Source: an uncultured Christensenella sp. (lineage in GTDB: Bacteria > Bacillota > Clostridia > Christensenellales > UBA1242). Taken from it: a DNA stretch of 64,000 nucleotides. Made by a program: the position numbers and the translations under genes. The stretch is from assembly GCA_905207515.1 (NCBI GenBank), contig CAJLLK010000001.1:12782-76781 (forward strand). Direction: 5' to 3'. Positions within the stretch are counted from its first letter, which is position 1. Each line of letters starts with the position of its first letter. The notes under the pieces are model-generated. The model saw nothing but the letters and a program-made list of their open reading frames with translations. It made no database searches and had not been told where the DNA came from. Below, one piece after another: positions 2,240-61,092 of the stretch.

Positions 2240-2839
2240 ATGTTAGACTTTTTTTTGCAGATTTTTTCGGACAATCCTGCGCTTGCGGTTGTGCTTGTGG
2301 CAATGTGTCCGACTTTGGAAAGCAAAGTTTCCATTCCGCTTGGACTTTCTGTGCAAATTTGGGGCGAAGCAACTTTAAGCCCATTTCTCTCTTTTCTTCT
2401 CTCGTTTCTTGGCAGTCTGCTGCCGGGAATTATCATCATTTTGGTCGTGAAGTTCATCAAAAAACGAACAAGTGGATTTGTCTGCAACACGCTGCTTGAC
2501 AAATTTATCAAACGTTATGACGGACAATTCAAAAAGCTGAGCGAAAAAAGTTCGACGCTCAAAAAATGTGCATTGCTTGCCACTTTTGTTGCGGTGCCAC
2601 TTCCGCTGACGGGCGTTTACACGGGCAGTTTGATTGCGGGTTTGACTAAACTTAAATTTTGGCAAGGTTTTGTTTCAATCGCAGTCGGCGAACTCGTCTC
2701 TTGCGCCATTGTGCTGCTCTTAAGCACAATAATCGAAAATTCGGCGTTTTATGTTTTGCTGATTTCGCTGGCGCTGATTTTTGTTTATGTTCTTTTCAGC
2801 GTTGTGCTGAGTTTAATAAAAAAGAAAAGAGATGATTGA
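2240..2839 (+). CDS. Small multidrug-export-like membrane protein (COG2426 / Sm_multidrug_ex-like)
   Basis: 199 aa and polytopic. Two family-like segments: CPTLESKVSIPLGLS and FVAVPLPLTGVYTGSLIAGL. Confidence 0.6.
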   Translation: MLDFFLQIFSDNPALAVVLVAMCPTLESKVSIPLGLSVQIWGEATLSPFLSFLLSFLGSLLPGIIIILVVKFIKKRTSGFVCNTLLDKFIKRYDGQFKKLSEKSSTLKKCALLATFVAVPLPLTGVYTGSLIAGLTKLKFWQGFVSIAVGELVSCAIVLLLSTIIENSAFYVLLISLALIFVYVLFSVVLSLIKKKRDD

Positions 2840-2945: not shown

Positions 2946-4658
2946 CTATTTTGCATATTTTCTATATAAATATTTTTTGGTGTGATAATTGATTGGAAAA
3001 GCCAGCAAAAGTCCGAAAATCGGCACAAGCAGCGACGTCAAAAAGTCGGCGATTGTTTCATATTGCATGCCTGCGATGATGTTTATGACAACGGTGATGA
3101 TGGTCAAAAGACCAAAAACAATCCAATTTGTGGCGCAACCATAAATCAAAGCCGCTTTTTTGCTTGGCATAACTTTGAATTTGACAAATTCGTAAACCAT
3201 TGCCACAAAAAACAAAATTGGCACGGTGTAGAACATGAAATTTGTGGAAGCTTGAAGTTTTCCGGCGGCACTGATAATTCCAAACAGAATTGCACAGCCA
3301 ATTCCTGAAAGCAAAAACAAAATTGTTGAAGCGACAAACTTCAAAAAGTTTGTGTTGTGGTTGCGTTCGACGGTGGTTTTCTTATATTCTTTGAAGTCGA
3401 TATTGTGCGAAGCATAATATTTTTTCAAAGAATTATAGTCGGCAAAGCTTTCAATGTCGTTGTAATTTTGACTTTCTTCAACAGGCGGAACGTAAACTTC
3501 TTCTTTCTTTTCTTTTTTGCGCTCAAACAGTTTTGCCATCATATCTTTGTAGGTTGGTTCGAGATTGCTGTCACGCTTTGGAGCGGGCAGGTTGTCGTCG
3601 TAGATGTTGACTTCGATGTTTGGAGGAGTTATCTTCTTTTGAATAGGAATTTGTGTTTCGTCAATTCGTGGCTCGGTGATAAACCTTGCGTCGTCTTTTG
3701 GCTCGTCTGTTTCTTCCAATTTTTCAAGGTCGACCTGTTCGGTCTTATAGAAAAACGACTTTTCTTCAGGTTTTTCTTCGTTTTCTTCGACTTTTTCGGT
3801 TTCGGCAGGCTTGTTTAAGTTGTAGTTATCGCGAGCGTTCAACATCGATTGTTTAAGCTGCTCGATGCGATTTCTTTGAATTTCTCTGTCTTCAGCATTT
3901 TCATAAACGACCGACATTTCGATTTGATTTTCTGAAAAACTTTTCTTTTTGCGATATTTTTTCAGCTCGGTTGAAGTGTCGTAAATGCGGCGATTTTGTT
4001 CTTCTTGATAAGGCGTGAGCTCAACTTTTTCGGTCTTATCTAAAAATTTTCCGTCGTCTTGCGGAGTCTGGTTGCTTTCCAAAATTGACTGATAATATTG
4101 CATTTTTTCTTGGTCATGCTCTGCATTTTGCTCGCTTTCCAAGTTGTTTTCAGGCGTAGGCATGCTGAAAATGTCGAGCTGGTTGTCCAAAATGTCTGAT
4201 TTTTCTTCTTCGGCTGCAGGAGCAGGCTTTTCTGGCTCTTTGACCAAGTCAAACATATTGTCTTGTTGAAGAAAAACTGGTTTGTTTTCTTCTTGAGCAG
4301 GCTCTTCAACGCTTTCTTTTTCAACTGCTTCGGTTTTGTCGATTGTTTTTGGTTCGTCAGTCATGATTGGCATGTTTTTAAACTCGCGAGCAAGCTCTTC
4401 TAGCGAACGTCGACCGTCGCTTGTGATTGTGTAGTAATGTCGTTTTCCGCCAAGCTCGCTTTCTCCCCAATATGAAGAAGAAACCAAACCTTTCTTTTCC
4501 ATTCTTGAAAGGCAAGAATAAAGAGTTGGCTTTTTCAAGATGTAATTTCCGCCAGATTGTTTTGAAATAAATTCAATAATCTCCAAGCCATATTTGGAGC
4601 CGTCAGCAAGGCTGTCCAAGATTAAATATGAAATCTGACCATTGGAATTGAATGCCAT
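2946..4658 (-). CDS. PadR-family winged-HTH regulator fused to a long acidic linker and a C-terminal 4-TM domain
   Basis: N-terminus YLILDSLADGSKYGLEIIEFI...LKKPTLYSCLSRMEKKGLV...GGKRHYYTITSDGRRSL is PadR-like. It is followed by about 330 aa of E/K/D/N-rich low complexity, then four hydrophobic helices. SD is TAGGAGAA. Confidence 0.8.
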   Translation of the reverse strand: MAFNSNGQISYLILDSLADGSKYGLEIIEFISKQSGGNYILKKPTLYSCLSRMEKKGLVSSSYWGESELGGKRHYYTITSDGRRSLEELAREFKNMPIMTDEPKTIDKTEAVEKESVEEPAQEENKPVFLQQDNMFDLVKEPEKPAPAAEEEKSDILDNQLDIFSMPTPENNLESEQNAEHDQEKMQYYQSILESNQTPQDDGKFLDKTEKVELTPYQEEQNRRIYDTSTELKKYRKKKSFSENQIEMSVVYENAEDREIQRNRIEQLKQSMLNARDNYNLNKPAETEKVEENEEKPEEKSFFYKTEQVDLEKLEETDEPKDDARFITEPRIDETQIPIQKKITPPNIEVNIYDDNLPAPKRDSNLEPTYKDMMAKLFERKKEKKEEVYVPPVEESQNYNDIESFADYNSLKKYYASHNIDFKEYKKTTVERNHNTNFLKFVASTILFLLSGIGCAILFGIISAAGKLQASTNFMFYTVPILFFVAMVYEFVKFKVMPSKKAALIYGCATNWIVFGLLTIITVVINIIAGMQYETIADFLTSLLVPIFGLLLAFPINYHTKKYLYRKYAK

Positions 4659-4678
4659 AGAAATTCTCCTATAAGCAA

Positions 4679-4708
4679 ATTATAATAAAACAAGAAAGAA
4701 ATTGTCAA
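4679..4708 (-). promoter_or_regulatory. Sigma-A promoter of the PadR-TM regulator gene
   Basis: Minus strand: TTGACA (4708-4703), 18 nt, TATAAT (4684-4679), then a leader containing TAGGAGAA. Confidence 0.6.
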
Positions 4709-4718
4709 ACAATTTTAA

Positions 4719-4808
4719 GGTATTATGCAAAAAATTTTTTATTGCATAATATAACAAGATGTATTGCAAAAATATGCATAATACACAACATGTTGTGGTG
4801 TTATGCAA
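4719..4808. repeat. TTGCATAAYAC motif cluster a: four copies forming two imperfect palindromes
   Basis: GGTATTATGCAA (4719-4730, inverted), TTGCATAATATA (4742-4753), TGCATAATACACAAC (4775-4789), GTTGTGGTGTTATGCAA (4792-4808, inverted). Confidence 0.75.
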
Positions 4809-4831
4809 TTTTGACAACATCTTCAAACCAT

Positions 4832-4860
4832 TTGCAAATTTAAATTTTTTGTGATAAAAT
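4832..4860 (+). promoter_or_regulatory. ygjP-like gene promoter placed for a leaderless transcript
   Basis: TTGCAA (4832-4837), 17 nt ending in TGa, TAAAAT (4855-4860), 6 nt (AAAAAT), ATG at 4867. No SD. Confidence 0.6.
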
Positions 4861-4866
4861 AAAAAT

Positions 4867-5496
4867 ATGAAAATTGAAATCATCAAAGAGAAAAGAAAAA
4901 CCATGGTGCTGAAAGTTTTGGATGAAGAACACGCTGTTTTGAAAGCACCAAAGAGTTTTAGTGATGCAAAAATAAAAACATTTTTGGATAGCAAGGCAAA
5001 ATGGCTGCAAAAAACGTGTGACAAGCTTAAATCACGCGATGATTTGGCTGCTAAATTTGACTTTGACAGGTTTGTTTACCTGGATGGCAAACAAATGATG
5101 TCGGTGAACGAAATCGCTTTTGATTTTTCCAAACTTTCTGAAAGCGCCAAGAGAAAAGCGATAAAAAATTATTATAAAACACTGTTTGTGGAAGTGGCTA
5201 AACTGGCAGAAAACCTTTCGGCAGAAACTGGCTTGAAGTTTAAAGAACTGAAAATGACAAATTCGGTCAGAGTTTGGGGGAGTTACAGCTCAAACGGAGT
5301 TATGAAATTGAATTGGAAACTTTTGATTTTGCCGCGCAAGCTCGCAGAATATGTCATCTTTCACGAGTTGTGTCACAGCAGGCACATGAACCACAAACCA
5401 CAATTTTGGCGTGCTGTCGAAAAAGTTTGCCCAGACTATAAGTTGCGAAAGAAAACTTTGAACGATTTTTCTTTTGTTTTAAGGCACGAATTTTAA
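4867..5496 (+). CDS. YgjP-like (DUF45 / M48-like) metal-dependent hydrolase
   Basis: C-terminal motif YVIFHELCHSRHMNHKPQFW and N-terminal EKRKTMVLKV...VLKAP pattern typical of the YgjP family. No SD upstream. Confidence 0.85.
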   Translation: MKIEIIKEKRKTMVLKVLDEEHAVLKAPKSFSDAKIKTFLDSKAKWLQKTCDKLKSRDDLAAKFDFDRFVYLDGKQMMSVNEIAFDFSKLSESAKRKAIKNYYKTLFVEVAKLAENLSAETGLKFKELKMTNSVRVWGSYSSNGVMKLNWKLLILPRKLAEYVIFHELCHSRHMNHKPQFWRAVEKVCPDYKLRKKTLNDFSFVLRHEF

Positions 5497-5543: not shown

Positions 5544-6719
5544 ATGAAAAGGTTTTATGTCACTGTTTTTTCTTTGTTGTTTTTGACTTTTTTATGTCTT
5601 TCGGTTCTCGCTCCGGTTCAGCTTCTCAACCAATTTGAAGGCGGATTTTTGGCTGATTATGACGATGTTGATGTTGTAAACGAAAACAAAACTTTTGGAC
5701 CGCTCATCAAAACCGAATTGAAAGCGAAAGACCAACAAGTTGGCGGGCAGAAAAACAAACAAGGCGAAATTGTTTTCAAACTTTTTGGTTTCATTCCAAT
5801 CAAAAAAGTGGATGTTGTTTTGGCGAGCGATGACGATTATTATGTCGGCGGAGTTCCTGTTGGGCTGGCAATAAACACCGGCGGAGCAATTGTCATTGGC
5901 GACGAAAACGGCAGCGTTTTGAAAGAAGGCGACATTATCACACAAATAAACGGTGTTGAAGTGAAAAATTTGAACCAAATTTCAGAAGTTTTGCAAAATT
6001 GCGGCGAAGAAGTCGAGATTGTATATTTGCGAAAAAATCGACCAATCAAGGCGCTTTTAAAAACTCACAAAGATGATGAAACAGGGCGTTTGAAACTCGG
6101 TCTTTGGGTCAAAGACGACGTCACTGGTGTTGGAACTTTGACGTTTGTCAACAAAACCACTCACAAATATGGCGCTTTGGGACATCCGATTGTCGAAGCC
6201 AACAGCGGAAACACAGTTCCGGTGTCGACTGGGAGTTTGTATGAATGCAACTTGATTGGCATAAACAAAGGCAAGAAAAATGACCCGGGCGAACTGAAAT
6301 GCGTGTTTGTTTCCAATTCAAAAAGCAAGGGCGACATTGAAAGCAACACAAAATTTGGGATAAGTGGCTATTTGAAAGACACAAAGGGTCTTGTTGACGA
6401 AAACTTGACGGCAAAACTCGGCGGCAGACTGGGAGTGAAACTTGGAAAAGCCAAGATTGTTTCCAGCATCAGCGGAATAAGAGAAGAATATGACATCGAA
6501 ATAATCAAAGCCAACTATCAAAAAACCGCAAACGACAAAAGTTTGGTGTTTAGAGTGAAAGATAAACGACTTTTGGAGCTCACGGGCGGAATTGTTCAGG
6601 GCATGAGCGGCTCACCAATCATGCAAGACGGAAAAATCGTTGGCGCGGTCACACACGTCTTTTTAAATGACCCAACAAAAGGCTATGGCGTTTACAGCGA
6701 CTGGATGGTGGCTGAATAA
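5544..6719 (+). CDS. spoIVB: SpoIVB peptidase (S55), stage IV sporulation signalling protease
   Basis: Signal/TM N-terminus, PDZ-like region (GDIITQINGVEVKN), and catalytic region GMSGSPIMQDGKIVGAVTHVFLNDPTKGYGVY. Confidence 0.9.
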   Translation: MKRFYVTVFSLLFLTFLCLSVLAPVQLLNQFEGGFLADYDDVDVVNENKTFGPLIKTELKAKDQQVGGQKNKQGEIVFKLFGFIPIKKVDVVLASDDDYYVGGVPVGLAINTGGAIVIGDENGSVLKEGDIITQINGVEVKNLNQISEVLQNCGEEVEIVYLRKNRPIKALLKTHKDDETGRLKLGLWVKDDVTGVGTLTFVNKTTHKYGALGHPIVEANSGNTVPVSTGSLYECNLIGINKGKKNDPGELKCVFVSNSKSKGDIESNTKFGISGYLKDTKGLVDENLTAKLGGRLGVKLGKAKIVSSISGIREEYDIEIIKANYQKTANDKSLVFRVKDKRLLELTGGIVQGMSGSPIMQDGKIVGAVTHVFLNDPTKGYGVYSDWMVAE

Positions 6720-6725
6720 ATTTTC

Positions 6726-6777
6726 ACTATATTTAGTTGCATAATACTGCATACCACAACTAAATATAGTTTTTTTG
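6726..6777 (+). terminator. spoIVB terminator-like hairpin (14-bp stem, 17-nt loop, T7 tail)
   Basis: ACTATATTTAGTTG (6726-6739) pairs with CAACTAAATATAGT (6757-6770), followed by TTTTTTT. The loop and stem edge carry two copies of the TTGCATAA motif. Confidence 0.55.
6737..6760 (+). repeat. TTGCATAAYAC motif cluster b: two tandem copies
   Basis: TTGCATAATAC (6737-6747) and TGCATACCACAAC (6748-6760), inside the spoIVB terminator hairpin. Confidence 0.65.
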
Positions 6778-6830
6778 TTGAAATAATTTTAAAAATTTCT
6801 GCATTTTTGTTTTGTTTTCTGTTTTGTTTT

Positions 6831-6846: not shown

Positions 6847-7881
6847 ATGAAACAACTTTCTTATTACGAAAAGCGTGACCTGAAAAACATGCAGATGATT
6901 GGCAATTATCTTCAAAAATTGCCGACTTATTGTTACGACTTCTTCACTGGCATTGAAAACAACACTTCTTCTTTGACCAGGCTCAATTATGCCATGGATT
7001 TGTCTGTGTTTTTTGATTATTTGGAAAAATATGTTTTCAGAAAGCCAAAAACGGACATTTCTCTGCAAGATTTGGACACTTTGAAAGCCAAAAACATTGA
7101 AAACTTTTTGTCTTATCTTTCTTATTATCAAATTGATGACAAGCTTTTGAAAAACACCGAACGCGGAAAAGCCAGAAAGCTTGCCAGCGTCAGAAGTTTT
7201 TTTAAATATCTTTTCAATCATGACATGCTTATCTCAAACGTGGAAAGCAAGGTTCAAACGCCGAAACTTCACAACAAAGAGATAATTCGTTTGGAAAAAG
7301 ATGAAGTTGACAGAATGCTTGATGCGGTTCAAGCTCCAACAACTTTCACAGAAAGGCAAAAGCACTACAACAAAAACACGCAAGAGCGAGACAATGCCAT
7401 CGTCACACTTTTTTTGGGAACGGGCATAAGAATTTCGGAACTTGTCGGTTTGAATGTCGACGACTTTGACTTTGCGCAATATGCTTTCAAAGTGACCAGA
7501 AAAGGCGGCAATCAGGCGATTTTATATTTCTCTAAAGAAGTGGCTGACGCACTTGAAAAATGGTTGGAAAAGCGAAAGACCTTGAAGCTTGATGAAAATG
7601 AAAAGGCTATGTTTGTTTCGCTTCAAAACAGAAGAATTTGTGTGCGTGCAGTTGAAAATTTGGTTAAAAAATATGCCAAAGAAGGCAGCCCGCTCAAAAA
7701 AATTTCGCCACACAAGTTGCGCTCGACTTTCGGCACAAATCTTTATCGCGAAACAAAAGATATTTACATTGTTGCAGATGTTTTGGGGCACAAAGATGTC
7801 AACACAACCAAAAAGCATTACGCCGCAATCAATGAAGATATGCGAAAATCTGTTGCGGGGAAAGTGAAAATTCATCAATGA
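6847..7881 (+). CDS. Tyrosine site-specific recombinase, XerS/XerC-like
   Basis: RDNAIVTLFLGTGIRISELVGL, TRKGG, HKLRSTFGTNLY and LGHKDVNTTKKHY give the R..HxxR..Y catalytic set. By eye, length and N-terminal layout resemble streptococcal XerS. Confidence 0.85.
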   Translation: MKQLSYYEKRDLKNMQMIGNYLQKLPTYCYDFFTGIENNTSSLTRLNYAMDLSVFFDYLEKYVFRKPKTDISLQDLDTLKAKNIENFLSYLSYYQIDDKLLKNTERGKARKLASVRSFFKYLFNHDMLISNVESKVQTPKLHNKEIIRLEKDEVDRMLDAVQAPTTFTERQKHYNKNTQERDNAIVTLFLGTGIRISELVGLNVDDFDFAQYAFKVTRKGGNQAILYFSKEVADALEKWLEKRKTLKLDENEKAMFVSLQNRRICVRAVENLVKKYAKEGSPLKKISPHKLRSTFGTNLYRETKDIYIVADVLGHKDVNTTKKHYAAINEDMRKSVAGKVKIHQ

Positions 7882-18641: not shown

Positions 18642-19184
18642 ATGGAAGAAACTTTATTTAGAGGCACCACCATTTGTGCAGTCAAACGAAATGGAAAGAT
18701 TGTCGTTGCGGGAGACGGACAAGTTACCATGCAAAACAGCATCATCTTCAAAAGTAACGCAAAAAAAGTGAGAAGAATTTACAACAACAGCGTTGTCATA
18801 GGCTTTGCCGGAAGTGTCGCTGATGCTTTTTCTTTGAGCGAAAAATTTGAAGCTATGCTCAACAAGTTTGCTGGAAATCTTATGCGAAGCGCTGTCGAAC
18901 TTGCGCAAACTTGGCGTGAAGACAAAGCTGTCAGAAAACTTGAAGCGATGATGATTGTTGCAGACAAAAACCATATGCTCATTTTGGACGGAACAGGCGA
19001 TGTTATTGAGCCACAAGATGACGTTTGTGCAATCGGTTCGGGCGGAAATTACGCTTTTGCGGCTGCCAAAGCGCTCATCGAAAACACTGATATGGAAGCA
19101 AAAGAAATTGCTTACAAGGCGCTGAAAATTGCCAGCGAAATTTGCGTTTTCACAAACGATAACATCATTGTGGAAGAATTGTAA
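18642..19184 (+). CDS. hslV: ATP-dependent protease subunit HslV
   Basis: N-terminal [22 protein letters not shown] and [14 protein letters not shown]. Confidence 0.95.
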
Positions 19185-19202
19185 GAGAAAGGAGTTTAAA
19201 TT

Positions 19203-20498
19203 ATGAATTTTACACCTAAACAAATTGTAAATGAATTGGATAAATATATTGTTGGACAAACCAAAGCCAAAAAAGCGGTGGCGGTTGCACTTCGAAATCG
19301 CTATAGAAGAAGCAAGCTTCCTGCTGAAGTTCGCGACGAAATCACACCAAAAAACATTGTTATGAGCGGACCTACTGGTGTCGGAAAGACCGAAATTGCT
19401 CGCCGTCTTGCTAAGCTTGTTGGCGCGCCATTTGTCAAAGTTGAAGCGACGAAATATACTGAAGTAGGCTATGTCGGCAGAGATGTTGAAAGCATGGTCA
19501 GAGATTTGGTTGAAGTCGCTGTCAGAATGGTCAAAGACCGCAAGAAGAAAGAAGTTGAAGACAAAGTTATGCCGATTGTCGAAAGCAAACTTGTCGATGC
19601 CCTTTTCCAAAATCGCAGAGTGACAATGGTTGACGTCAACAGAGACAGCTTGTTTGAAGAACTCCACAGCGGAAAATGCGAAGAGGAGACGGTTGAAGTT
19701 GTTGTTTTGGAAACTCCAAAGCCTATGATGGCTTTTGGCTCGGGCGAAATCAATTTGGGCTCGATGTTTGACAGCCTTGCACCACAAAAACATAAGAAAA
19801 AGAAGATGACGGTCAGACACGCAAGAGAGGTTTTGTTGCAAGAAGAAAGCGACAAGATTATCGACATGGACAACGTCAATGAAGAAGCGATTTCTTTGGC
19901 AGAAGAGCAGGGCATTATCTTTATCGATGAAATCGACAAAATCATCGGAAAAAGCCAGGCGACAAACAGCGCTGATGTTTCGCGAGAAGGCGTGCAAAGA
20001 GACATTTTGCCGATTGTGGAAGGCAGCACCGTTCCAACAAAATATGGCAATGTGAAAACAGACTTCATTCTTTTCATTGCTGCGGGGGCTTTCCATGTGG
20101 CAAAAATGGAAGACATGATTCCTGAACTTCAAGGAAGATTTCCTATCAGGGTGGAACTTGAAAGTTTGACAAAAGAGGATTTCAAAAAGATTTTGAGCAC
20201 TCCAAAAAACGCGGTGACAGTGCAATATTCAAACCTTTTGAAAGTCGACAACATCAATCTTGTGTTTAAAGATGACGCTTTGGACGAAATCGCGGAAATG
20301 GCAGAAAGAGAAAACGAAACAAGCGAAGACTTGGGCGCAAGACGACTTCACACAATCATGGAAGCGCTTTTGGAAGATGTTTCTTTCAATGCCACAGGCG
20401 AACATCCAATGCTTGACATCATTATCGACAAAAATTATGTTGACAATGTTTTCAAAGACAGACAATATAAATTTGATTTGAAGAAATATGTTTTATAA
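19203..20498 (+). CDS. hslU: ATP-dependent protease ATPase subunit HslU
   Basis: TPKQIVNELDKYIVGQ, Walker A GPTGVGKTEIARRLA, Walker B IIFIDEIDK. Confidence 0.95.
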   Translation: MNFTPKQIVNELDKYIVGQTKAKKAVAVALRNRYRRSKLPAEVRDEITPKNIVMSGPTGVGKTEIARRLAKLVGAPFVKVEATKYTEVGYVGRDVESMVRDLVEVAVRMVKDRKKKEVEDKVMPIVESKLVDALFQNRRVTMVDVNRDSLFEELHSGKCEEETVEVVVLETPKPMMAFGSGEINLGSMFDSLAPQKHKKKKMTVRHAREVLLQEESDKIIDMDNVNEEAISLAEEQGIIFIDEIDKIIGKSQATNSADVSREGVQRDILPIVEGSTVPTKYGNVKTDFILFIAAGAFHVAKMEDMIPELQGRFPIRVELESLTKEDFKKILSTPKNAVTVQYSNLLKVDNINLVFKDDALDEIAEMAERENETSEDLGARRLHTIMEALLEDVSFNATGEHPMLDIIIDKNYVDNVFKDRQYKFDLKKYVL

Positions 20499-20506
20499 TC
20501 AAAATA

Positions 20507-20545
20507 TTGTGTATTATGCAAGAAAAATTTTGCATAATACCACAA
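20507..20545. repeat. TTGCATAAYAC motif cluster c: inverted pair with 8-nt spacer
   Basis: TTGTGTATTATGCAA (20507-20521), gaaaaatt, TTGCATAATACCACAA (20530-20545). The right copy ends 13 nt before the tcdA ATG. Confidence 0.75.
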
Positions 20546-20558
20546 GAAAAGGTGTTTT

Positions 20559-21233
20559 ATGTGGACGGATAGAACAAGTGCGTTGATTGGCGAAGAAGGA
20601 CTTGAAAAACTTAAAAACAGTCATGTGGCTGTCGTCGGCATTGGCGGAGTTGGTGGTTATGTTTGCGTTATGCTTGCAAGAGCTGGAGTTGGAAAACTGA
20701 CAATTGTCGATTTCGACAAAGTGGACGAAACCAACATCAACAGGCAAGTTGTTGCCACAACAAAAACAGTTGGAGAATATAAAGTGGATGTTATGGAAAA
20801 AATGTTGAGAGACATTAATCCAAACTGCCAGGTGTGCGCGCTTAAAGAGCGTTTCAACGAAAATTTTGCAAAAACTTTGTTTCAAAACCATTTTGATTTT
20901 GTTGTTGACGCAATTGACAGCGTTTCAGACAAGGTCGAACTCATTTGTTTTTGCAAACAGAATGGCATTGACATTGTTTCTGCCATGGGCGCGGGAAATC
21001 GAATTGACATTCCGCATTTTGAAGTGACTGACATTTTTAAAACGTCAAATGACGGCTTGGCAAAAGTTATGCGAAAGAAATTGCGTGAAAAACAAGTCGA
21101 GAGTTTAGATGTTGTCACAACAACTTCAAAGGCGCTTGCAACAAATGGAAAAATCGGCAGCATTTCATATTATCCTGCGATGTGCGGCTGTGTTTTGAGT
21201 GGTTTTGTTATAAACAAACTGCTGGCAAAATAA
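20559..21233 (+). CDS. tcdA: tRNA threonylcarbamoyladenosine dehydratase (ThiF/TcdA family)
   Basis: VAVVGIGGVGGY nucleotide-binding loop, DFDKVDETNINRQ, DAIDSVSDKVELI; collinear by eye with E. coli TcdA. Confidence 0.8.
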   Translation: MWTDRTSALIGEEGLEKLKNSHVAVVGIGGVGGYVCVMLARAGVGKLTIVDFDKVDETNINRQVVATTKTVGEYKVDVMEKMLRDINPNCQVCALKERFNENFAKTLFQNHFDFVVDAIDSVSDKVELICFCKQNGIDIVSAMGAGNRIDIPHFEVTDIFKTSNDGLAKVMRKKLREKQVESLDVVTTTSKALATNGKIGSISYYPAMCGCVLSGFVINKLLAK

Positions 21234-21254
21234 GTTATTTTAAAAGGAGAATTT

Positions 21255-21563
21255 ATGGAACTTTTAAACGAGAAAAATTTTCAAGAAAAAATCTCTAAAG
21301 GTGTTGTTGTGGTGGACTTTTTTGCAACTTGGTGCGGACCTTGCAGAATGCTGGCACCAATTTTGGAAGATGTTCAAGAAGAGCTAAAAGACCAAGCTCA
21401 CATTTTCAAGGTTGACGTCGACGAAAACGAAAAATTGGCTCGAAGCTTTGGAATTATGAGCATTCCGACAATCATCGTTTTTGTCAACGGCGAAATGAAA
21501 GACAAACGCGTTGGTTTGATGATGAAAGATGAACTTTTGGCACTTGTCAAAAAATATCTTTGA
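21255..21563 (+). CDS. trxA: Thioredoxin
   Basis: 102 aa, WCGPC active site. Confidence 0.95.
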   Translation: MELLNEKNFQEKISKGVVVVDFFATWCGPCRMLAPILEDVQEELKDQAHIFKVDVDENEKLARSFGIMSIPTIIVFVNGEMKDKRVGLMMKDELLALVKKYL

Positions 21564-21614
21564 TTTTTCGGCTTATCAACAACATTTTTGGTGTCAACAA
21601 TTTGATTTTACCTA

Positions 21615-21643
21615 TTGACAATCTCTTTTGTTGGTGTTAAAAT
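21615..21643 (+). promoter_or_regulatory. nifS-nifU promoter
   Basis: TTGACA (21615-21620), 17 nt, TAAAAT (21638-21643); the leader carries SD AAAGGA. Confidence 0.6.
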
Positions 21644-21665
21644 TGAACTATTAAAAGGACGTCTT

Positions 21666-22841
21666 ATGGAAAGAAAAATTTATTTGGATAACGCTTCAAC
21701 AACTTACGTTTCAAATGAAGTTTTGAACGAAATGTTGCCTTGTTTCAATTCCATTTATGGAAACGCTGGCTCATTACATAGTTTTGGCCGCGATGCAATG
21801 GCGATTGTTGACAGAGCAAGAGACAGAGTGAAAGAAGCTATCAACGCCGAAAAAGCCAATGAAATTTATTTCACAAGCGGCGGCACTGAAGCTGACAATT
21901 GGGCGATTTTGGGGGTTGCTCATGCTTACGCAAACAAGGGCAAACACATCATCACAAGCCAAATTGAACACCATGCAATTTTGAACGCTTGCGAACAACT
22001 CGAAAAGGAAGGCTTTGAAGTGACTTATTTGCCAGTTGACAGCACTGGACTTGTTGACATCGCAGAACTTCTGCACGCCATTCGAAGCGACACGACGCTG
22101 ATTTCGGTTATGTCAGTAAACAACGAAGTTGGCACAATTGAAAACATCAAAACCATTGCCAAAATCGCACATGAATATCACATCATTTTCCACACCGACG
22201 CTGTTCAAGCCATTGGAAACCTGAAAATGGATGTTCAAGACATGGAAATTGACCTTATGTCTATGTCTTCTCACAAAATTCATGGGCCAAAAGGCGTTGG
22301 AGCGTTGTATGTTAAAAACGGCATCAACATCGAACCTATCACTTTTGGCGGAATCAACCAAGAGCGTGGCAAACGTGCGGGAACAGAAAATGTTGCTGGA
22401 ATTGCGGGCTTTGGAAAGGCGATTGAAATTGCCACAAGAAATTATGTTATAAACAACAAAAAACTCAGAACAATCAGAGATTATTTCCTGGAAAAATTGA
22501 CCGAAAAAGTGGATTATTTTCAGGTAAATGGTCATCCACAACAAAAATCAAATGCCATTTTAAACATTTCTTTCTATGGCGTTGAAGGAGAATCCATTTT
22601 GATGCTTTTGGACTTGGCAGGAATTGCTGTTTCCACAACATCAGCTTGCACATCAAAGGCAATGCTTCCATCGCATGTTTTGAAAGCAATGGGCGTTCCT
22701 GATGACATTGCTCAAGGCTCAATCAGAATTTCATTCGGCACCAACATTTCTAAGTCAGATGTGGACTATGTTGTAGACGAAATTCAAAAGGTTGTCGCAA
22801 AACTGAGAGCAATTTCACCAATTCAAGCGGGGAGGATTTAA
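21666..22841 (+). CDS. nifS: Cysteine desulfurase NifS (start refined to ATG 21666)
   Basis: MERKIYLDNASTT, SSHKIHGPKG (PLP Lys), SACTS active Cys. The promoter lies inside the longer ORF-track extension. Confidence 0.9.
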   Translation: MERKIYLDNASTTYVSNEVLNEMLPCFNSIYGNAGSLHSFGRDAMAIVDRARDRVKEAINAEKANEIYFTSGGTEADNWAILGVAHAYANKGKHIITSQIEHHAILNACEQLEKEGFEVTYLPVDSTGLVDIAELLHAIRSDTTLISVMSVNNEVGTIENIKTIAKIAHEYHIIFHTDAVQAIGNLKMDVQDMEIDLMSMSSHKIHGPKGVGALYVKNGINIEPITFGGINQERGKRAGTENVAGIAGFGKAIEIATRNYVINNKKLRTIRDYFLEKLTEKVDYFQVNGHPQQKSNAILNISFYGVEGESILMLLDLAGIAVSTTSACTSKAMLPSHVLKAMGVPDDIAQGSIRISFGTNISKSDVDYVVDEIQKVVAKLRAISPIQAGRI

Positions 22842-22843
22842 AT

Positions 22844-23275
22844 ATGTATTACAGCAAAACGGTTATGGATAGATTTCAAAATCCAAGAAATGCAGGTGGC
22901 ATGCACGGCGCAAACGCAATTGGTCAAGTTGGAAATGTTGCTTGTGGCGACATCATGAAGCTTTATTTGAAAATAAACGACAATGGCGTCATTGAAAACG
23001 CGAGATTTAAGACTTTTGGCTGCTGTGTGGCAATCGCTGCAACAGACATCGCTTGTGATTTGGTCAAAGGAAAGACCATTGATGAAGCATTGAAAATTTC
23101 AAACACAGATTTGATGAACATTTTGGGAGAAATTCCTACGCACAAAATATATTGTTGCATTTTGGCTGAAGAAGCTATCAGAGCGGCAATTGAAGATTAT
23201 TATAAAAGACGCGAAAAAGAATCAAAAATGGCAATCAAGAAGTCTATGAAAAATTCTGAAGAGATTGCCGAATAA
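22844..23275 (+). CDS. nifU: Fe-S cluster assembly scaffold NifU/IscU
   Basis: NPRNAG..., VACGDIMKLYL, FKTFGCCVAIA; three scaffold Cys present. Confidence 0.9.
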   Translation: MYYSKTVMDRFQNPRNAGGMHGANAIGQVGNVACGDIMKLYLKINDNGVIENARFKTFGCCVAIAATDIACDLVKGKTIDEALKISNTDLMNILGEIPTHKIYCCILAEEAIRAAIEDYYKRREKESKMAIKKSMKNSEEIAE

Positions 23276-23295
23276 AAAATTGTCAGATAAAAAAT

Positions 23296-23328
23296 AAAAA
23301 GCATCTAAGTTTGAATAGATGCTTTTTT
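23296..23328 (+). terminator. nifU terminator
   Basis: AAAAAGCATCTaagtttgaatAGATGCTTTTTT. Confidence 0.75.
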
Positions 23329-23329
23329 G

Positions 23330-23409
23330 TTGCATAACACCATTTGTTTAAAATGTTGCATAATACCATATTTTGTGTGACTGCTTTTGCATAATACGCA
23401 AGATATAGC
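23330..23409 (+). repeat. TTGCATAAYAC motif cluster d: three direct copies
   Basis: TTGCATAACACC (23330-23341), TTGCATAATACC (23356-23367), TTGCATAATACGCAAGATATAG (23387-23408). Confidence 0.75.
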
Positions 23410-23593
23410 CTATCTCTTCGCAAAACTTGTGTTTTGCGAATAAATTTAAAGCCTTATTTTCTAAAAAATTTTGTTGTCTCCCATAAAATTTTGCCTATAA
23501 AATTATAAAAAGTTGCAAACAAAAAGATTTAATTGAAAGTTTAGAACAGCTTTTCTGACAAATTAGCGCCCAAATTTAAACCAAGCCCAACTA

Positions 23594-28944: not shown

Positions 28945-29670
28945 TTAAAACAAAGTTTTGTTGATTTCATACATAATAATACTTCCGCTAACGCCAGCGT
29001 TTAGGCTTTCAATGCCTGGCATCATCGGAATTTTTACGCTTTGTTTACACAAATTTGAAATTTCTTTGCTGACACCCTGACCTTCGTTTCCAATCACAAC
29101 GCCCACCTGTTTGTCAGTTTTGAAATTGAAGATGTTTTCTCCATTCATGTCGCATTTCAACAAATTTAAGTTGTTTTTTTGCGAGAAAGCGACAAATTCT
29201 TCTCTTGGAAGCTCAAAAACCTTGCTGTCAAAAACGGCTCCGACAGAACTTCGAATAAGTTTCGCATTAGATTTTTTGACTGAATCGACAAGATAGACAA
29301 ACGAAAAACCGCTTGCAAAAGCACTTCGAATGAGCGTTCCAACATTGCCTGGGTCTTGAAGTCCATCCAAAACAAGAAAATTTGTTTTTGGCGCAACCAC
29401 AACATCTTGTGTGTAGTATGCAACGCATAATACTTTCTGTGGTGTTTTTGTGTCTGAAAGTTGTTCAATTGTTTTGTCGTCAGTCTTAAAAATTTTGCCA
29501 CTAAAATCAAATGGCAGACTGTCTAAACTTGTCAAGATGCAATCAGTTTTGATGGAATTATTTTTTATGGCGTCTTTGATGATTTTGACATTATCCAAAA
29601 AAAGCAAAGACTTGTTTTCTCGTTTTTGCTTTTTAAGTGTCAATATGAAGTTTTTTGTCGCCTTTTCCAT
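28945..29670 (-). CDS. TrmH/SpoU family RNA 2'-O-methyltransferase
   Basis: LDGLQDPGNVGTLIRSA, VVIGNEGQGVS, IPMMPGIESLNAGVSGSIIMYE. Confidence 0.85.
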   Translation of the reverse strand: MEKATKNFILTLKKQKRENKSLLFLDNVKIIKDAIKNNSIKTDCILTSLDSLPFDFSGKIFKTDDKTIEQLSDTKTPQKVLCVAYYTQDVVVAPKTNFLVLDGLQDPGNVGTLIRSAFASGFSFVYLVDSVKKSNAKLIRSSVGAVFDSKVFELPREEFVAFSQKNNLNLLKCDMNGENIFNFKTDKQVGVVIGNEGQGVSKEISNLCKQSVKIPMMPGIESLNAGVSGSIIMYEINKTLF

Positions 29671-40616: not shown

Positions 40617-40886
40617 ACTGGGCTAGATGGGGAGTTAGCGGTGCCCTGTAACCTGCAATCCGCTACAGCAGGGTTGAACGTTTGCCTAGGTGCAGTTTGG
40701 TTGAAGATGTGCACAAGGTTTTGATGTTGAAATCAAGGTCTTATGCAACCAGCTCCTTCGAACCATGTCAGGTCCTGACGGAAGCATCATTAAGAAGATC
40801 AGTTGATGTGCCATGAGGAAGCTTTGATGGAGTTGAAATTTTGTGAGGCAGTCAGTCAAATTGCAACAAAGCATTCGCCCAGCATG
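40617..40886 (+). ncRNA. ffs: Signal recognition particle RNA, large Bacillus type with Alu domain
   Basis: Domain IV core CATGTCAGGTCCTGACGGAAGCA. The 5' segment GGGCTAGATGGGGAGTTAGCGGTGCCCTGTAACC is Alu-like. Terminal helix CTGGGC (40618-40623) pairs with GCCCAG (40877-40882). A perfect promoter lies upstream and a terminator downstream. Length about 270 nt. Confidence 0.88.
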
Positions 40887-46404: not shown

Positions 46405-46424
46405 AGCTCTCCTTTATCAACATT

Positions 46425-46474
46425 TTGTGTATTATGCTTGCATACCACCTTGCATAACACACAAGATATAGTGT
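46425..46474. repeat. TTGCATAAYAC motif cluster e: one inverted and two direct copies, plus an ACAC-N8-GTGT palindrome
   Basis: TTGTGTATTATGC (46425-46437, inverted), TTGCATACCACC (46438-46449), TTGCATAACACACAA (46450-46464), ACACAAGATATAGTGT (46459-46474). Confidence 0.75.
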
Positions 46475-61038: not shown

Positions 61039-61053
61039 ACAATCTCCTATATT

Positions 61054-61092
61054 TTGTGTATTATGCATTGCATATCACACTATATTTGGTGT
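61054..61092. repeat. TTGCATAAYAC motif cluster f: inverted pair, plus an ACAC-N8-GTGT palindrome
   Basis: TTGTGTATTATGCA (61054-61067, inverted), TTGCATATCACAC (61068-61080), ACACTATATTTGGTGT (61077-61092). Confidence 0.75.

Follow-up and report, generated by a model that had tools for sequence, protein, structure and literature searches.

BcrR of Enterococcus carries four C-terminal transmembrane (TM) helices whose outside loops are minimal, and its sensing takes place inside the membrane. The BlaR1/BlaI and MecR1/MecI systems each combine a winged-helix repressor with a zinc metallopeptidase, and it is the membrane-embedded component that receives the signal. Vibrio AphA belongs to the PadR family; the AphA box reads ATATGCA-N6-TGCATAT (PMC3440409). 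In HAAS-PadR dyads, the membrane partner is thought to relay envelope or membrane signals to a PadR-like winged helix-turn-helix domain (PMC11237479). PadR-type transmembrane regulators are rare but already counted, because a census of transmembrane transcription regulators lists 158 of them among 50,302 (PMC10269533); our literature searches found no characterised PadR-type transmembrane regulator. For membrane-bound one-component regulators in general, how a membrane-fixed protein finds and controls chromosomal sites is an open question. Here we describe PadR-4TM, a protein encoded in a 64,000-nucleotide stretch of contig CAJLLK010000001.1 from an uncultured Christensenella sp. (the whole stretch is called the window below). 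We read it, with a probability of roughly 50%, as a membrane-embedded one-component regulator whose PadR head would recognise a dispersed motif with a TGCATA core and which would control its own gene.

PadR-4TM is a single open reading frame (ORF) preceded by an AGGAG ribosome-binding site. Its parts are given below with their window coordinates; AF2 denotes AlphaFold2 models and pLDDT their predicted local distance difference test score.

2946..4658, minus strand: PadR-4TM gene, 570 amino acids (aa) plus stop codon (ORF listing; more than 200 full-length homologues; identical protein in NCBI GCA_902473215.1)
4374..4658, minus strand: PadR winged helix-turn-helix head, residues 1-95 (Pfam PF03551, AF2, Foldseek)
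3354..4373, minus strand: acidic tether with conserved blocks, residues 96-435, about 340 residues (composition, pLDDT, alignments)
4251..4271, minus strand: linker motif A, LQQDNMF, residues 130-136 (Q132 and F136 invariant in 83 sequences; QDN[ILM]F variants in the family)
4167..4184, minus strand: linker motif B, NQLDIF, residues 159-164 (N159, Q160, D162 and F164 invariant in 83 sequences)
2949..3353, minus strand: four-helix transmembrane module, residues 436-570 (hydropathy, AF2)

A search of 5.8 billion proteins retrieved 233 relatives; the alignments of the 120 that were listed span about 92-100% of the query, with identities of 50-63% and in one case 98%. Because the relatives span the whole query, the objection that a frameshift had joined two genes fails. 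The original prediction had described one 570-aa protein with a PadR winged helix at residues 1 to about 95, a disordered linker of about 330 residues and four C-terminal TM helices. The single protein, the head and the helices were borne out, and the linker proved to be acidic but only partly disordered (see below). Its view that a membrane-anchored PadR protein is unusual holds in that such proteins are rare, but the class had already been counted in the census.

By the sequence of its head domain, PadR-4TM is assigned to the PadR family. The Pfam PadR profile (PF03551) matches residues 13-88 at E=3e-16 (59.6 bits against a curated cut-off of 27), and a phmmer search with the first 100 residues against the PDB matched solved PadR and LmrR proteins, among them PadR 9qbc (E=8e-16) in an alignment that keeps YG.E, LYS and GG+R+YY. 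An AF2 model built on 83 homologues contains a confident winged helix at residues 4-93 (helices 5-19, 24-35 and 43-55, strands 59-66 and 72-78, helix 80-93), with pLDDT values of 81-92 over most of residues 11-90 that drop to 62 across the wing. The top 50 Foldseek matches of this head are all PadR-type or LmrR structures, with E-values down to 5e-6 and a target-normalised TM-score of about 0.7. The head is nearly invariant in the 83-sequence alignment, and K22, Y23, Y47, K72 and R73 are fully so. The PadR DNA-binding motif consists of two tyrosines and a basic residue (PMC5728393); Y23, Y47 and K72 resemble it by pattern, not by residue-level alignment to, or superposition on, Bacillus subtilis PadR. 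Compared with the LmrR-like short subfamily (PF03551; PDB 9qbc, 3f8b and 1xma), the head has the same winged helix in sequence and fold, and the helix after the wing lies where the dimerisation helix starts in that subfamily. However, the known members are soluble proteins of 100-200 aa, whereas in PadR-4TM the post-wing helix is short (80-93) and continues into the 340-residue tether and the 4TM module. By architecture, PadR-4TM is a transmembrane one-component regulator.

Hydropathy and AF2 agree on TM helices at about residues 436-464, 474-496, 508-528 and 533-568, all with pLDDT above 90, and residues 400-570 modelled alone reach a pLDDT of 87.8. Under the positive-inside rule, a basic loop (KFKVMPSKK) and a basic C-terminal tail give an N-in, C-in topology, which places both termini in the cytoplasm and therefore the DNA-binding head inside the cell. 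The module had no fold match among solved PDB structures (Foldseek, best E=0.39). A profile of residues 400-570 run against 1.84 billion representative proteins found only 95 proteins (clusters); in these the module is always C-terminal, in proteins of 430-900 aa (fragments aside), and 67 of the 68 full-length carriers have a PadR domain. This survey of relatives confirms the proposed PadR–TM architecture; PadR and the module are obligately fused, in a way that is specific to a Christensenellales-type family. Genome matches come from uncultured gut Clostridia, Candidatus Caccovivens, and Christensenella-like and Onthoplasma metagenome-assembled genomes; distant members (24-50% identity, 343-631 aa), including Christensenella-like and Onthoplasma ones, keep the plan of head, tether and 4TM module. 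Polar and proline residues are conserved in and at the ends of the TM helices (residues 435-559; window 2982-3356), namely HNTN 434-437, FYTxP 476-480, NW 511-512, GMQxE 530-534, P546 and FPxN 554-557. The outside loops are very short, and together these features point to intramembrane sensing or an interaction surface.

The gene shares a 208-bp spacer (4659-4866) with a divergent ygjP-like gene, and this spacer contains the following elements.

4679..4708, minus strand: sigma-A-type promoter of the PadR-4TM gene, TTGACA-18-TATAAT (12/12 match; conserved in orthologous promoters)
4715..4730, minus strand: motif unit nearest to the promoter, TTGCATAATACCTTAA, which spans about -43 to -58 relative to the inferred padR-4TM start site
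4742..4757, plus strand: motif unit TTGCATAATATAACAA, which with the 4715-4730 unit forms an outward-facing pair, the first palindrome
4755..4772, minus strand: degenerate fifth unit TTTTTGCAATACATCTTG, at the same position as a TGCATAtCACCAC unit in orthologues
4774..4808, no single strand: inward-facing pair of ATGCATAATACACAAC (plus) and TTGCATAACACCACAA (minus), the second palindrome, with an NrdR-box-like centre ACACAACATGTTGTGG at 4783-4798
4832..4860, plus strand: ygjP-like gene promoter, TTGCAA-17-TAAAAT extended by TGTG (promoter match; ends 6 nt before the ATG)

At 4720-4808, TTATGCAA is found three times exactly and once with one mismatch, and extension of the sites yields a 16-bp unit, TTGCATAAYAC(C)ACAA, of which a single unit reads TTGCATAATACCACAA. 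The motif cluster that had been proposed for this control region is real and recurs across orthologues, as does the perfect promoter of the regulator gene (4708-4679, minus strand); the window also has the two imperfect palindromes, at 4721-4734/4738-4751 (93% complementary) and 4770-4784/4798-4812 (80%). The count of four motif copies stands as four good units, but the 16-bp unit describes the motif better, and there is one degenerate unit in addition. We compared this region with loci from 65 species-level genomes, and the layout of the array is kept upstream of orthologues that share 45-62% protein identity. In orthologous arrays, two or three distal units are followed by an inverted unit and then by TTGCATAATACC, which lies 9-11 nt before TTGACA. 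Of 56 orthologous promoters, 48 carry a TGCATAnYA core 8-16 nt upstream of the -35 box, as do 5 of 9 distant homologues; upstream of the gene the core reaches 2.68 copies per 250 nt, whereas the background is 0.065, a 41-fold local enrichment. In distant Christensenella-like homologues, TTGCATA(G/A)(T/C)Acc stands just upstream of TTGAC in a spacer that is otherwise unalignable, and similar cores are found in other spacers of these genomes.

The conservation of the array upstream of its own gene is a comparative-genomics argument for autoregulation, which it supports but does not prove. The idea that PadR-4TM is the reader of the motif gains from the fixed position of the core in most orthologous promoters, from the half-site TATGCA/TGCATA that the motif shares with the AphA box, from the Tyr/Tyr/basic pattern of the head, from the retained position of the motif upstream of orthologous pheT and cysteine-desulfurase genes and from the conserved gene triad described below, but it is unproven and has a serious rival in NrdR; at about even odds, autoregulation by PadR-4TM is the best single explanation. 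In the mechanism that we propose, the PadR head would bind the 16-bp unit through its TGCATA core, first in the array between the padR and ygjP promoters, and would there regulate its own gene and the peptidase gene. It would also bind one to three units just upstream of the ribosome-binding sites of several housekeeping genes, namely pheT, a cysteine desulfurase gene, thiF, yhbY, rbgA and a xerD-like gene. The 4TM module would sense an intramembrane or lipid-related signal. The output might be DNA binding that is altered while the protein stays tethered, as in BcrR, ToxR and CadC, or cleavage of the tether, for which the co-conserved YgjP-like peptidase would be the obvious candidate.

Across the window, TTATGCAA occurs 16 times against 5.07 expected (3-fold), and none of 100 shuffles reached 16. 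Fifteen of 20 hits to the core pattern are intergenic, while only about 11% of the window is; the motif is carried by 6 of the 37 spacers of at least 40 bp, at about eight clusters per 64 kb, and hundreds of sites are predicted per genome. Sites lie close to start codons, with mixed unit orientation relative to the downstream gene. Units alternate in orientation and form pairs of two geometries: inward-facing pairs have a constant span of 32-33 bp with cores 20 bp apart, and outward-facing pairs have their TATGCA and TGCATA cores 0-3, 9-11 or 12-14 bp apart, never 6 bp. The TGCATA core is the most constant part of the motif. One metagenome scan with the motif gave 23 hits, of which 7 were real arrays and 3 of these were padR-4TM/ygjP spacers.

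Arrays of this kind could also be structural repeats like repetitive extragenic palindromic (REP) elements, intercistronic RNA hairpins or compact promoters, rather than operators of a specific regulator. They are imperfect palindromes of alternating orientation in intergenic and intercistronic spacers, inward pairs (TTGCAT-N17/18-TATTAT with TGTG) resemble an extended -10 promoter, and the copy at 6724-6772 is flanked by an 11-bp inverted repeat and then a T-run. However, the variable dinucleotide is complementary in only 10 of 58 inward pairs (shuffle mean 14.0) and 29 of 94 outward pairs (31.6), no more than in shuffles, so pairing is not selected; RNA hairpins, cruciforms and REP elements are disfavoured on this ground. 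About half of the units carry G where a -10 hexamer needs A at -11 (in inward pairs, 30 of 58 have AC, CC or TC at the variable positions, giving TG..AT hexamers without A-11), orientation relative to the downstream gene is variable and several spacers have no match, all of which disfavours a sigma-A extended -10 or compact promoter. The padR/ygjP array lies upstream of both -35 boxes and is therefore probably not transcribed. Unlike mobile REPs, an unchanged sequence is also found in unchanged places in genomes whose proteins are about 50% identical. We consider this explanation very improbable. Among other candidates, the -35/-10 elements of the sporulation sigma factors (F/G/E/K) and the DnaA box do not fit in spacing and sequence when their consensus sequences are compared by eye with the motif. 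The Xer/dif site shares TTATG with the motif, but its arm spacing does not fit; a search of the window for dif-like sites with at least 19 of 28 matches gave none beyond two chance-level hits.

Several points weigh against PadR-4TM as the reader. The link between factor and motif is drawn from conservation of position only. The asymmetry of the unit is odd if its reader is a symmetric PadR dimer. The half-site TATGCA/TGCATA of AphA coincides exactly with the invariant core here, and AphA controls its own gene through upstream sites, but AphA is soluble and from unrelated taxa, and its half-sites are 6 bp apart; the candidate sites hold neither the N6 spacing of the AphA box nor the 6-bp-spaced inverted repeat of B. 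subtilis PadR, their outward cores being 0-3, 9-11 or 12-14 bp apart and their inward cores 20 bp apart. The array sits between both -35 boxes and overlaps neither core promoter, so that promoter occlusion in the style of PadR repressors is not the obvious mode, and in the short intercistronic spacers that hold many of the sites no sigma-A promoter was detected. Given the high density of sites, a membrane-tethered protein would have to be a global regulator. Finally, two units that face each other make up a palindrome in agreement with the NrdR box at each of its six critical positions, and such boxes are spaced about 33 bp apart, so another protein could read at least part of the array.

NrdR is the most concrete form of this last possibility, in which another factor reads the dispersed motif and PadR-4TM is merely one of its targets; we regard it as unlikely but serious. 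The NrdR box is a 16-bp partial palindrome with key positions C4, A6, A8, T9, T11 and G13, and its linkers measure 15-16 or 26-27 bp, so that paired boxes stand about three or four helical turns apart (PMC13584703). Here, the tails of two inward-facing units form a look-alike, ACACAAyATrTTGTGT, and ACACAACATGTTGTGG at window position 4783 has all six key positions and agrees with the synthetic consensus ACACAACATCTAGTGG at 14 of its 16 letters. Every high-scoring NrdR-like box in the window falls within a motif cluster (box starts include 4783, 20497, 23363, 29397, 46459, 61044 and 61077), and distances between box starts peak at 33 bp, about three helical turns, with a minor peak at 43-44 bp. 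Yet the linkers between boxes in the window (16, 17, 17, 17, 27 and 28 bp) are about 1 bp longer than the canonical ones. At least two NrdR-like boxes occur in only 84 of 366 motif clusters, and many clusters have one box or none. The box-like centres in these arrays are flanked by TGCATAAT, and what would be the linker of an NrdR site is here the most conserved part (TATTATGCAA..TTGCATAATA), the TGCATA core being more constant than the centre of the box. The most conserved unit, next to the padR -35 box, has no NrdR-like box, and Christensenella-like genomes carry TGCATA(A/G)TAC cores, including direct repeats, without boxes. No nrd gene adjoins the motif, whose targets are pheT, a nifS-like gene, thiF, yhbY, rbgA, padR-4TM, ygjP and the xerD-like gene, and neither nrd nor nrdR genes were found in the 1.2 Mb of DNA searched.

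The tether joins the head to the membrane and gives rise to a different account of the same sites. Residues 96-440 are rich in E (16%), K (11%), D (8%) and N (8%), with a net charge of -31. About half of the tether is of low confidence in the AF2 model (pLDDT below 50 at 99-178, 196-207, 282-329 and 384-402), and helices are predicted at 177-195, 216-281, 370-379 and 408-417. In alignments of 18 and 83 sequences, about seven blocks are conserved to the same degree as the folded domains. They include motif A, with the family form LQQ[DEG]N[ILM]F (130-136), and motif B, NQ[ILM]D[ILF]F (159-164); two copies of DDA[KV][FL][LI] around residues 201 and 322; KKYRKKKSFSENQIEM (233-248), within the predicted helices at 216-281; IPxQKKIxPPNI (337-348); NLPAPKRxSxLEPTYKDMMxKLFE (356-379); and a juxtamembrane block at 404-435 that contains FxDYxxLKxYY...IxFKEY (405-425). 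The acidic, E/K/D/N-rich and partly disordered character of the linker thus agrees with what had been claimed, but these blocks and helices rule out a uniformly disordered linker.

By its sequence, motif B looks like a motif that binds the bacterial sliding clamp, which is defined as Q-phi-x-[L/M]-[F/L] with the consensus QLDLF (PMC11139829; bioRxiv 2026.05.27.728225). PadR-4TM might bind the motif but act, rather than mainly through classical control of transcription, as a site-specific chromosome-to-membrane tether, or as a replication-coupled factor that binds the DnaN clamp through NQ[ILM]D[ILF]F, a reading that we hold to be improbable. Motifs A and B are among the few invariant residues outside the folded domains, and both lie in a low-confidence acidic segment (pLDDT below 50 around motif B). 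Motif A (QDNMF) is similar to the internal QADMF of Escherichia coli Pol III alpha. Family variants of motif B are QIDIF (the most frequent), QLDLF, QIDLF, QIDMF, QYDLF and QFDLF. In addition, many of the hundreds of predicted sites per genome have no nearby promoter, three direct units lie at the GC-skew switch at about 23.4 kb, and MuC of phage Mu is a precedent for a clamp-dependent transcription factor (bioRxiv 2025.01.04.631326). However, the resemblance is to a 5-residue pattern, and the window copy, QLDIF, has at position 4 an isoleucine that is suboptimal against the consensus and reported to be weaker (PMC11139829). The pattern is found in most distant members but is absent from about a quarter of them, and the sites are strongly intergenic and near start codons, as gene regulation predicts. 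In an extended form of this account, PadR-4TM would be a chromosome-membrane connector that holds a few hundred dispersed TGCATA-core sites, including those at the terminus, and DnaN through the two tether motifs, with release or reset by the YgjP-like peptidase, which we regard as a long shot. It is an equally long shot that such a connector would couple fork passage or clamp occupancy to gene expression or to attachment of the nucleoid to the membrane.

The genes on either side of PadR-4TM are as follows.

4867..5496, plus strand: YgjP-like zinc metallopeptidase gene, divergent, with a HELCH motif (Pfam PF01863, E=1.2e-40)
2240..2839, plus strand: gene for a small Sm_multidrug_ex / VTT-like membrane protein, convergent (Pfam PF06695, E=3.9e-21; weak VTT hit)

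We assessed conservation of this neighbourhood by tblastn and Pfam searches on the related loci that had been fetched. The divergent YgjP-like gene is kept in 49 of 55 loci (L001-L055) and also in the distant loci L058, L059 and L061-L063, in which synteny with recN and spoIVB is lost and the convergent neighbour encodes a VTT/DedA-domain membrane protein. The retention of this triad (YgjP-like, PadR-4TM and VTT/DedA) despite lost synteny argues for a functional module. That the YgjP-like peptidase acts on the tether is something we infer only; a literature search on YgjP/DUF45 function found nothing useful. The start region of the ygjP-like gene (4850-4869) contains the extended -10 element TGTGATAAAAT. 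As this element ends 6 nt before the ATG and no Shine-Dalgarno sequence was found upstream of the start, the mRNA is probably leaderless. The public annotation starts the gene 12 codons later (197 aa); the N-terminus used here, MKIEI.., is homologous to MQIDM.. in distant loci such as L062.

A xerD-like recombinase gene (window 6847-7881) stays within a few kilobases of PadR-4TM in related loci, and its orientation relative to spoIVB varies among genomes: it is on the plus strand in L001-L010 and others, and on the minus strand in L011, L036-L042, L044, L048 and the window. Because motif units flank the gene (at 6625-6643 and 7811-7860 in L001), an inversion of this segment between inverted motif units is suggested. 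Between recN and the Sm_multidrug_ex gene, an ORF at 1008-2198 encodes 396 aa with a HELFH (HExxH) motif; it has no Pfam or NCBIfam hit and, lacking any tblastn match in the 65 related loci, looks like a strain-specific insertion. Elsewhere in the window, a 523-aa ORF (18654-20225, minus strand) lies antisense to hslV and hslU (18642-19184 and 19203-20498, plus strand), each of which it exceeds in length; a caller that picks the longest ORF could be misled by it, but it almost certainly does not represent a gene. A bacterial large signal recognition particle RNA is encoded at 40618-40882 on the plus strand (Rfam RF01854, 155.8 bits). It is the only Rfam match over the whole window, in which no tRNA genes were found.

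Beyond the padR/ygjP spacer, the motif scan placed sites at the following positions.

6724..6772, no single strand: motif cluster between spoIVB and the xerD-like gene
20497..20555, no single strand: motif pair in the 60-bp hslU-thiF spacer
23330..23411, plus strand: three direct motif units (starts 23330, 23356 and 23387) in a convergent spacer at the GC-skew switch
29397..29435, no single strand: motif pair inside the coding sequence of a SpoU-type methylase
46415..46474, no single strand: motif array in the obg-yhbY spacer
61044..61092, no single strand: motif array in the trmD-rbgA spacer

About 25 genomes keep the motif in place in the pheS-pheT spacer, and about 25 keep it ahead of a cysteine-desulfurase-like gene; its position upstream of the orthologous genes is retained in the obg-yhbY and trmD-rbgA spacers as well. 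Many target spacers are 55-70 bp long and almost filled by the array. No match to a sigma-A-like promoter was found in the thiF, yhbY and rbgA spacers; a roadblock or a factor-dependent internal promoter would fit such promoterless spacers. The candidate regulon consists mostly of sulfur-relay/tRNA-thiolation genes and ribosome-assembly genes (yhbY, rbgA, pheT). At 20559-23275, the motif pair precedes a string of thiF, a small ORF, a 408-aa ORF and nifU. The pair in the SpoU-type rRNA/tRNA methylase gene, GTATTATGCG-T-TGCATACTACACACAAGATGTTGTGG, is in frame and is the only good non-intergenic array of the window. After spoIVB, the motif units lie in the loop of a perfect 11-bp inverted repeat (ACTATATTTAG / CTAAATATAGT, 6712-6780) followed by a T-run, an arrangement that resembles a terminator whose loop measures 23 nt.

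From about +0.1 at 1-23 kb, GC skew falls to about -0.1 at 24-50 kb; at 50-58 kb, a part with plus-strand genes, it is about 0. The cumulative maximum, at about 23-24 kb, coincides with the 318-bp convergent spacer 23276-23593, which is therefore a probable replication terminus. The three direct units in this spacer come after a bidirectional terminator, and the spacer contains no ORF, small or otherwise, no Rfam family or known RNA and no dif-like site.

For the question of how membrane-fixed regulators reach the chromosome, the PadR-4TM family is an unusually clean case, with a well-understood head, a long tether with docking motifs and a compact 4TM sensor; it also offers a conserved peptidase partner, a VTT/DedA-type neighbour and a sharply defined candidate motif. 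If the protein does read the motif, it would be a global regulator at the membrane in poorly studied but common gut Clostridia (Christensenellales-like and Candidatus Caccovivens). If it were to bind the clamp, it would provide a link between replication and transcription, or an anchor for the nucleoid, of a kind undescribed for cellular transcription factors.

PadR-4TM is neither a member of the HAAS-PadR dyads nor a BcrR-type regulator. In the dyads (DUF1700, DUF1129, DUF1048; PMC11237479), as here, a PadR-type head is coupled to a membrane protein, but there the parts are separate and the partner has a three-helix HAAS domain, whereas here they are fused. The PadR-4TM protein gave no Pfam hit to these three domains even at E<=1. 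Two of 68 relatives have DUF1129 hits on their TM part that stay below threshold (E=2.2e-5 in one and E=0.023 in P0196); these hint faintly at kinship with the dyads' membrane partners but do not amount to membership, and we reject assignment to the dyads on this account. With the transmembrane regulators BcrR, ToxR, TcpP and CadC (PMC10269533, PMC3968067), PadR-4TM shares the joining of a cytoplasmic DNA-binding domain and TM helices in a single polypeptide. By contrast, the DNA-binding domain is of the XRE type in BcrR, of the OmpR type in ToxR and CadC and of the PadR type here, the tether of PadR-4TM is far longer and has conserved short motifs, and the predicted number of sites is that of a global rather than a local regulator. 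With BlaR1 and MecR1, the membrane sensor is a peptidase and the repressor a soluble protein, whereas here it is the regulator that sits in the membrane and the YgjP-like peptidase that is soluble; by analogy, these systems may nevertheless serve as a template for the control of PadR-4TM by cleavage.

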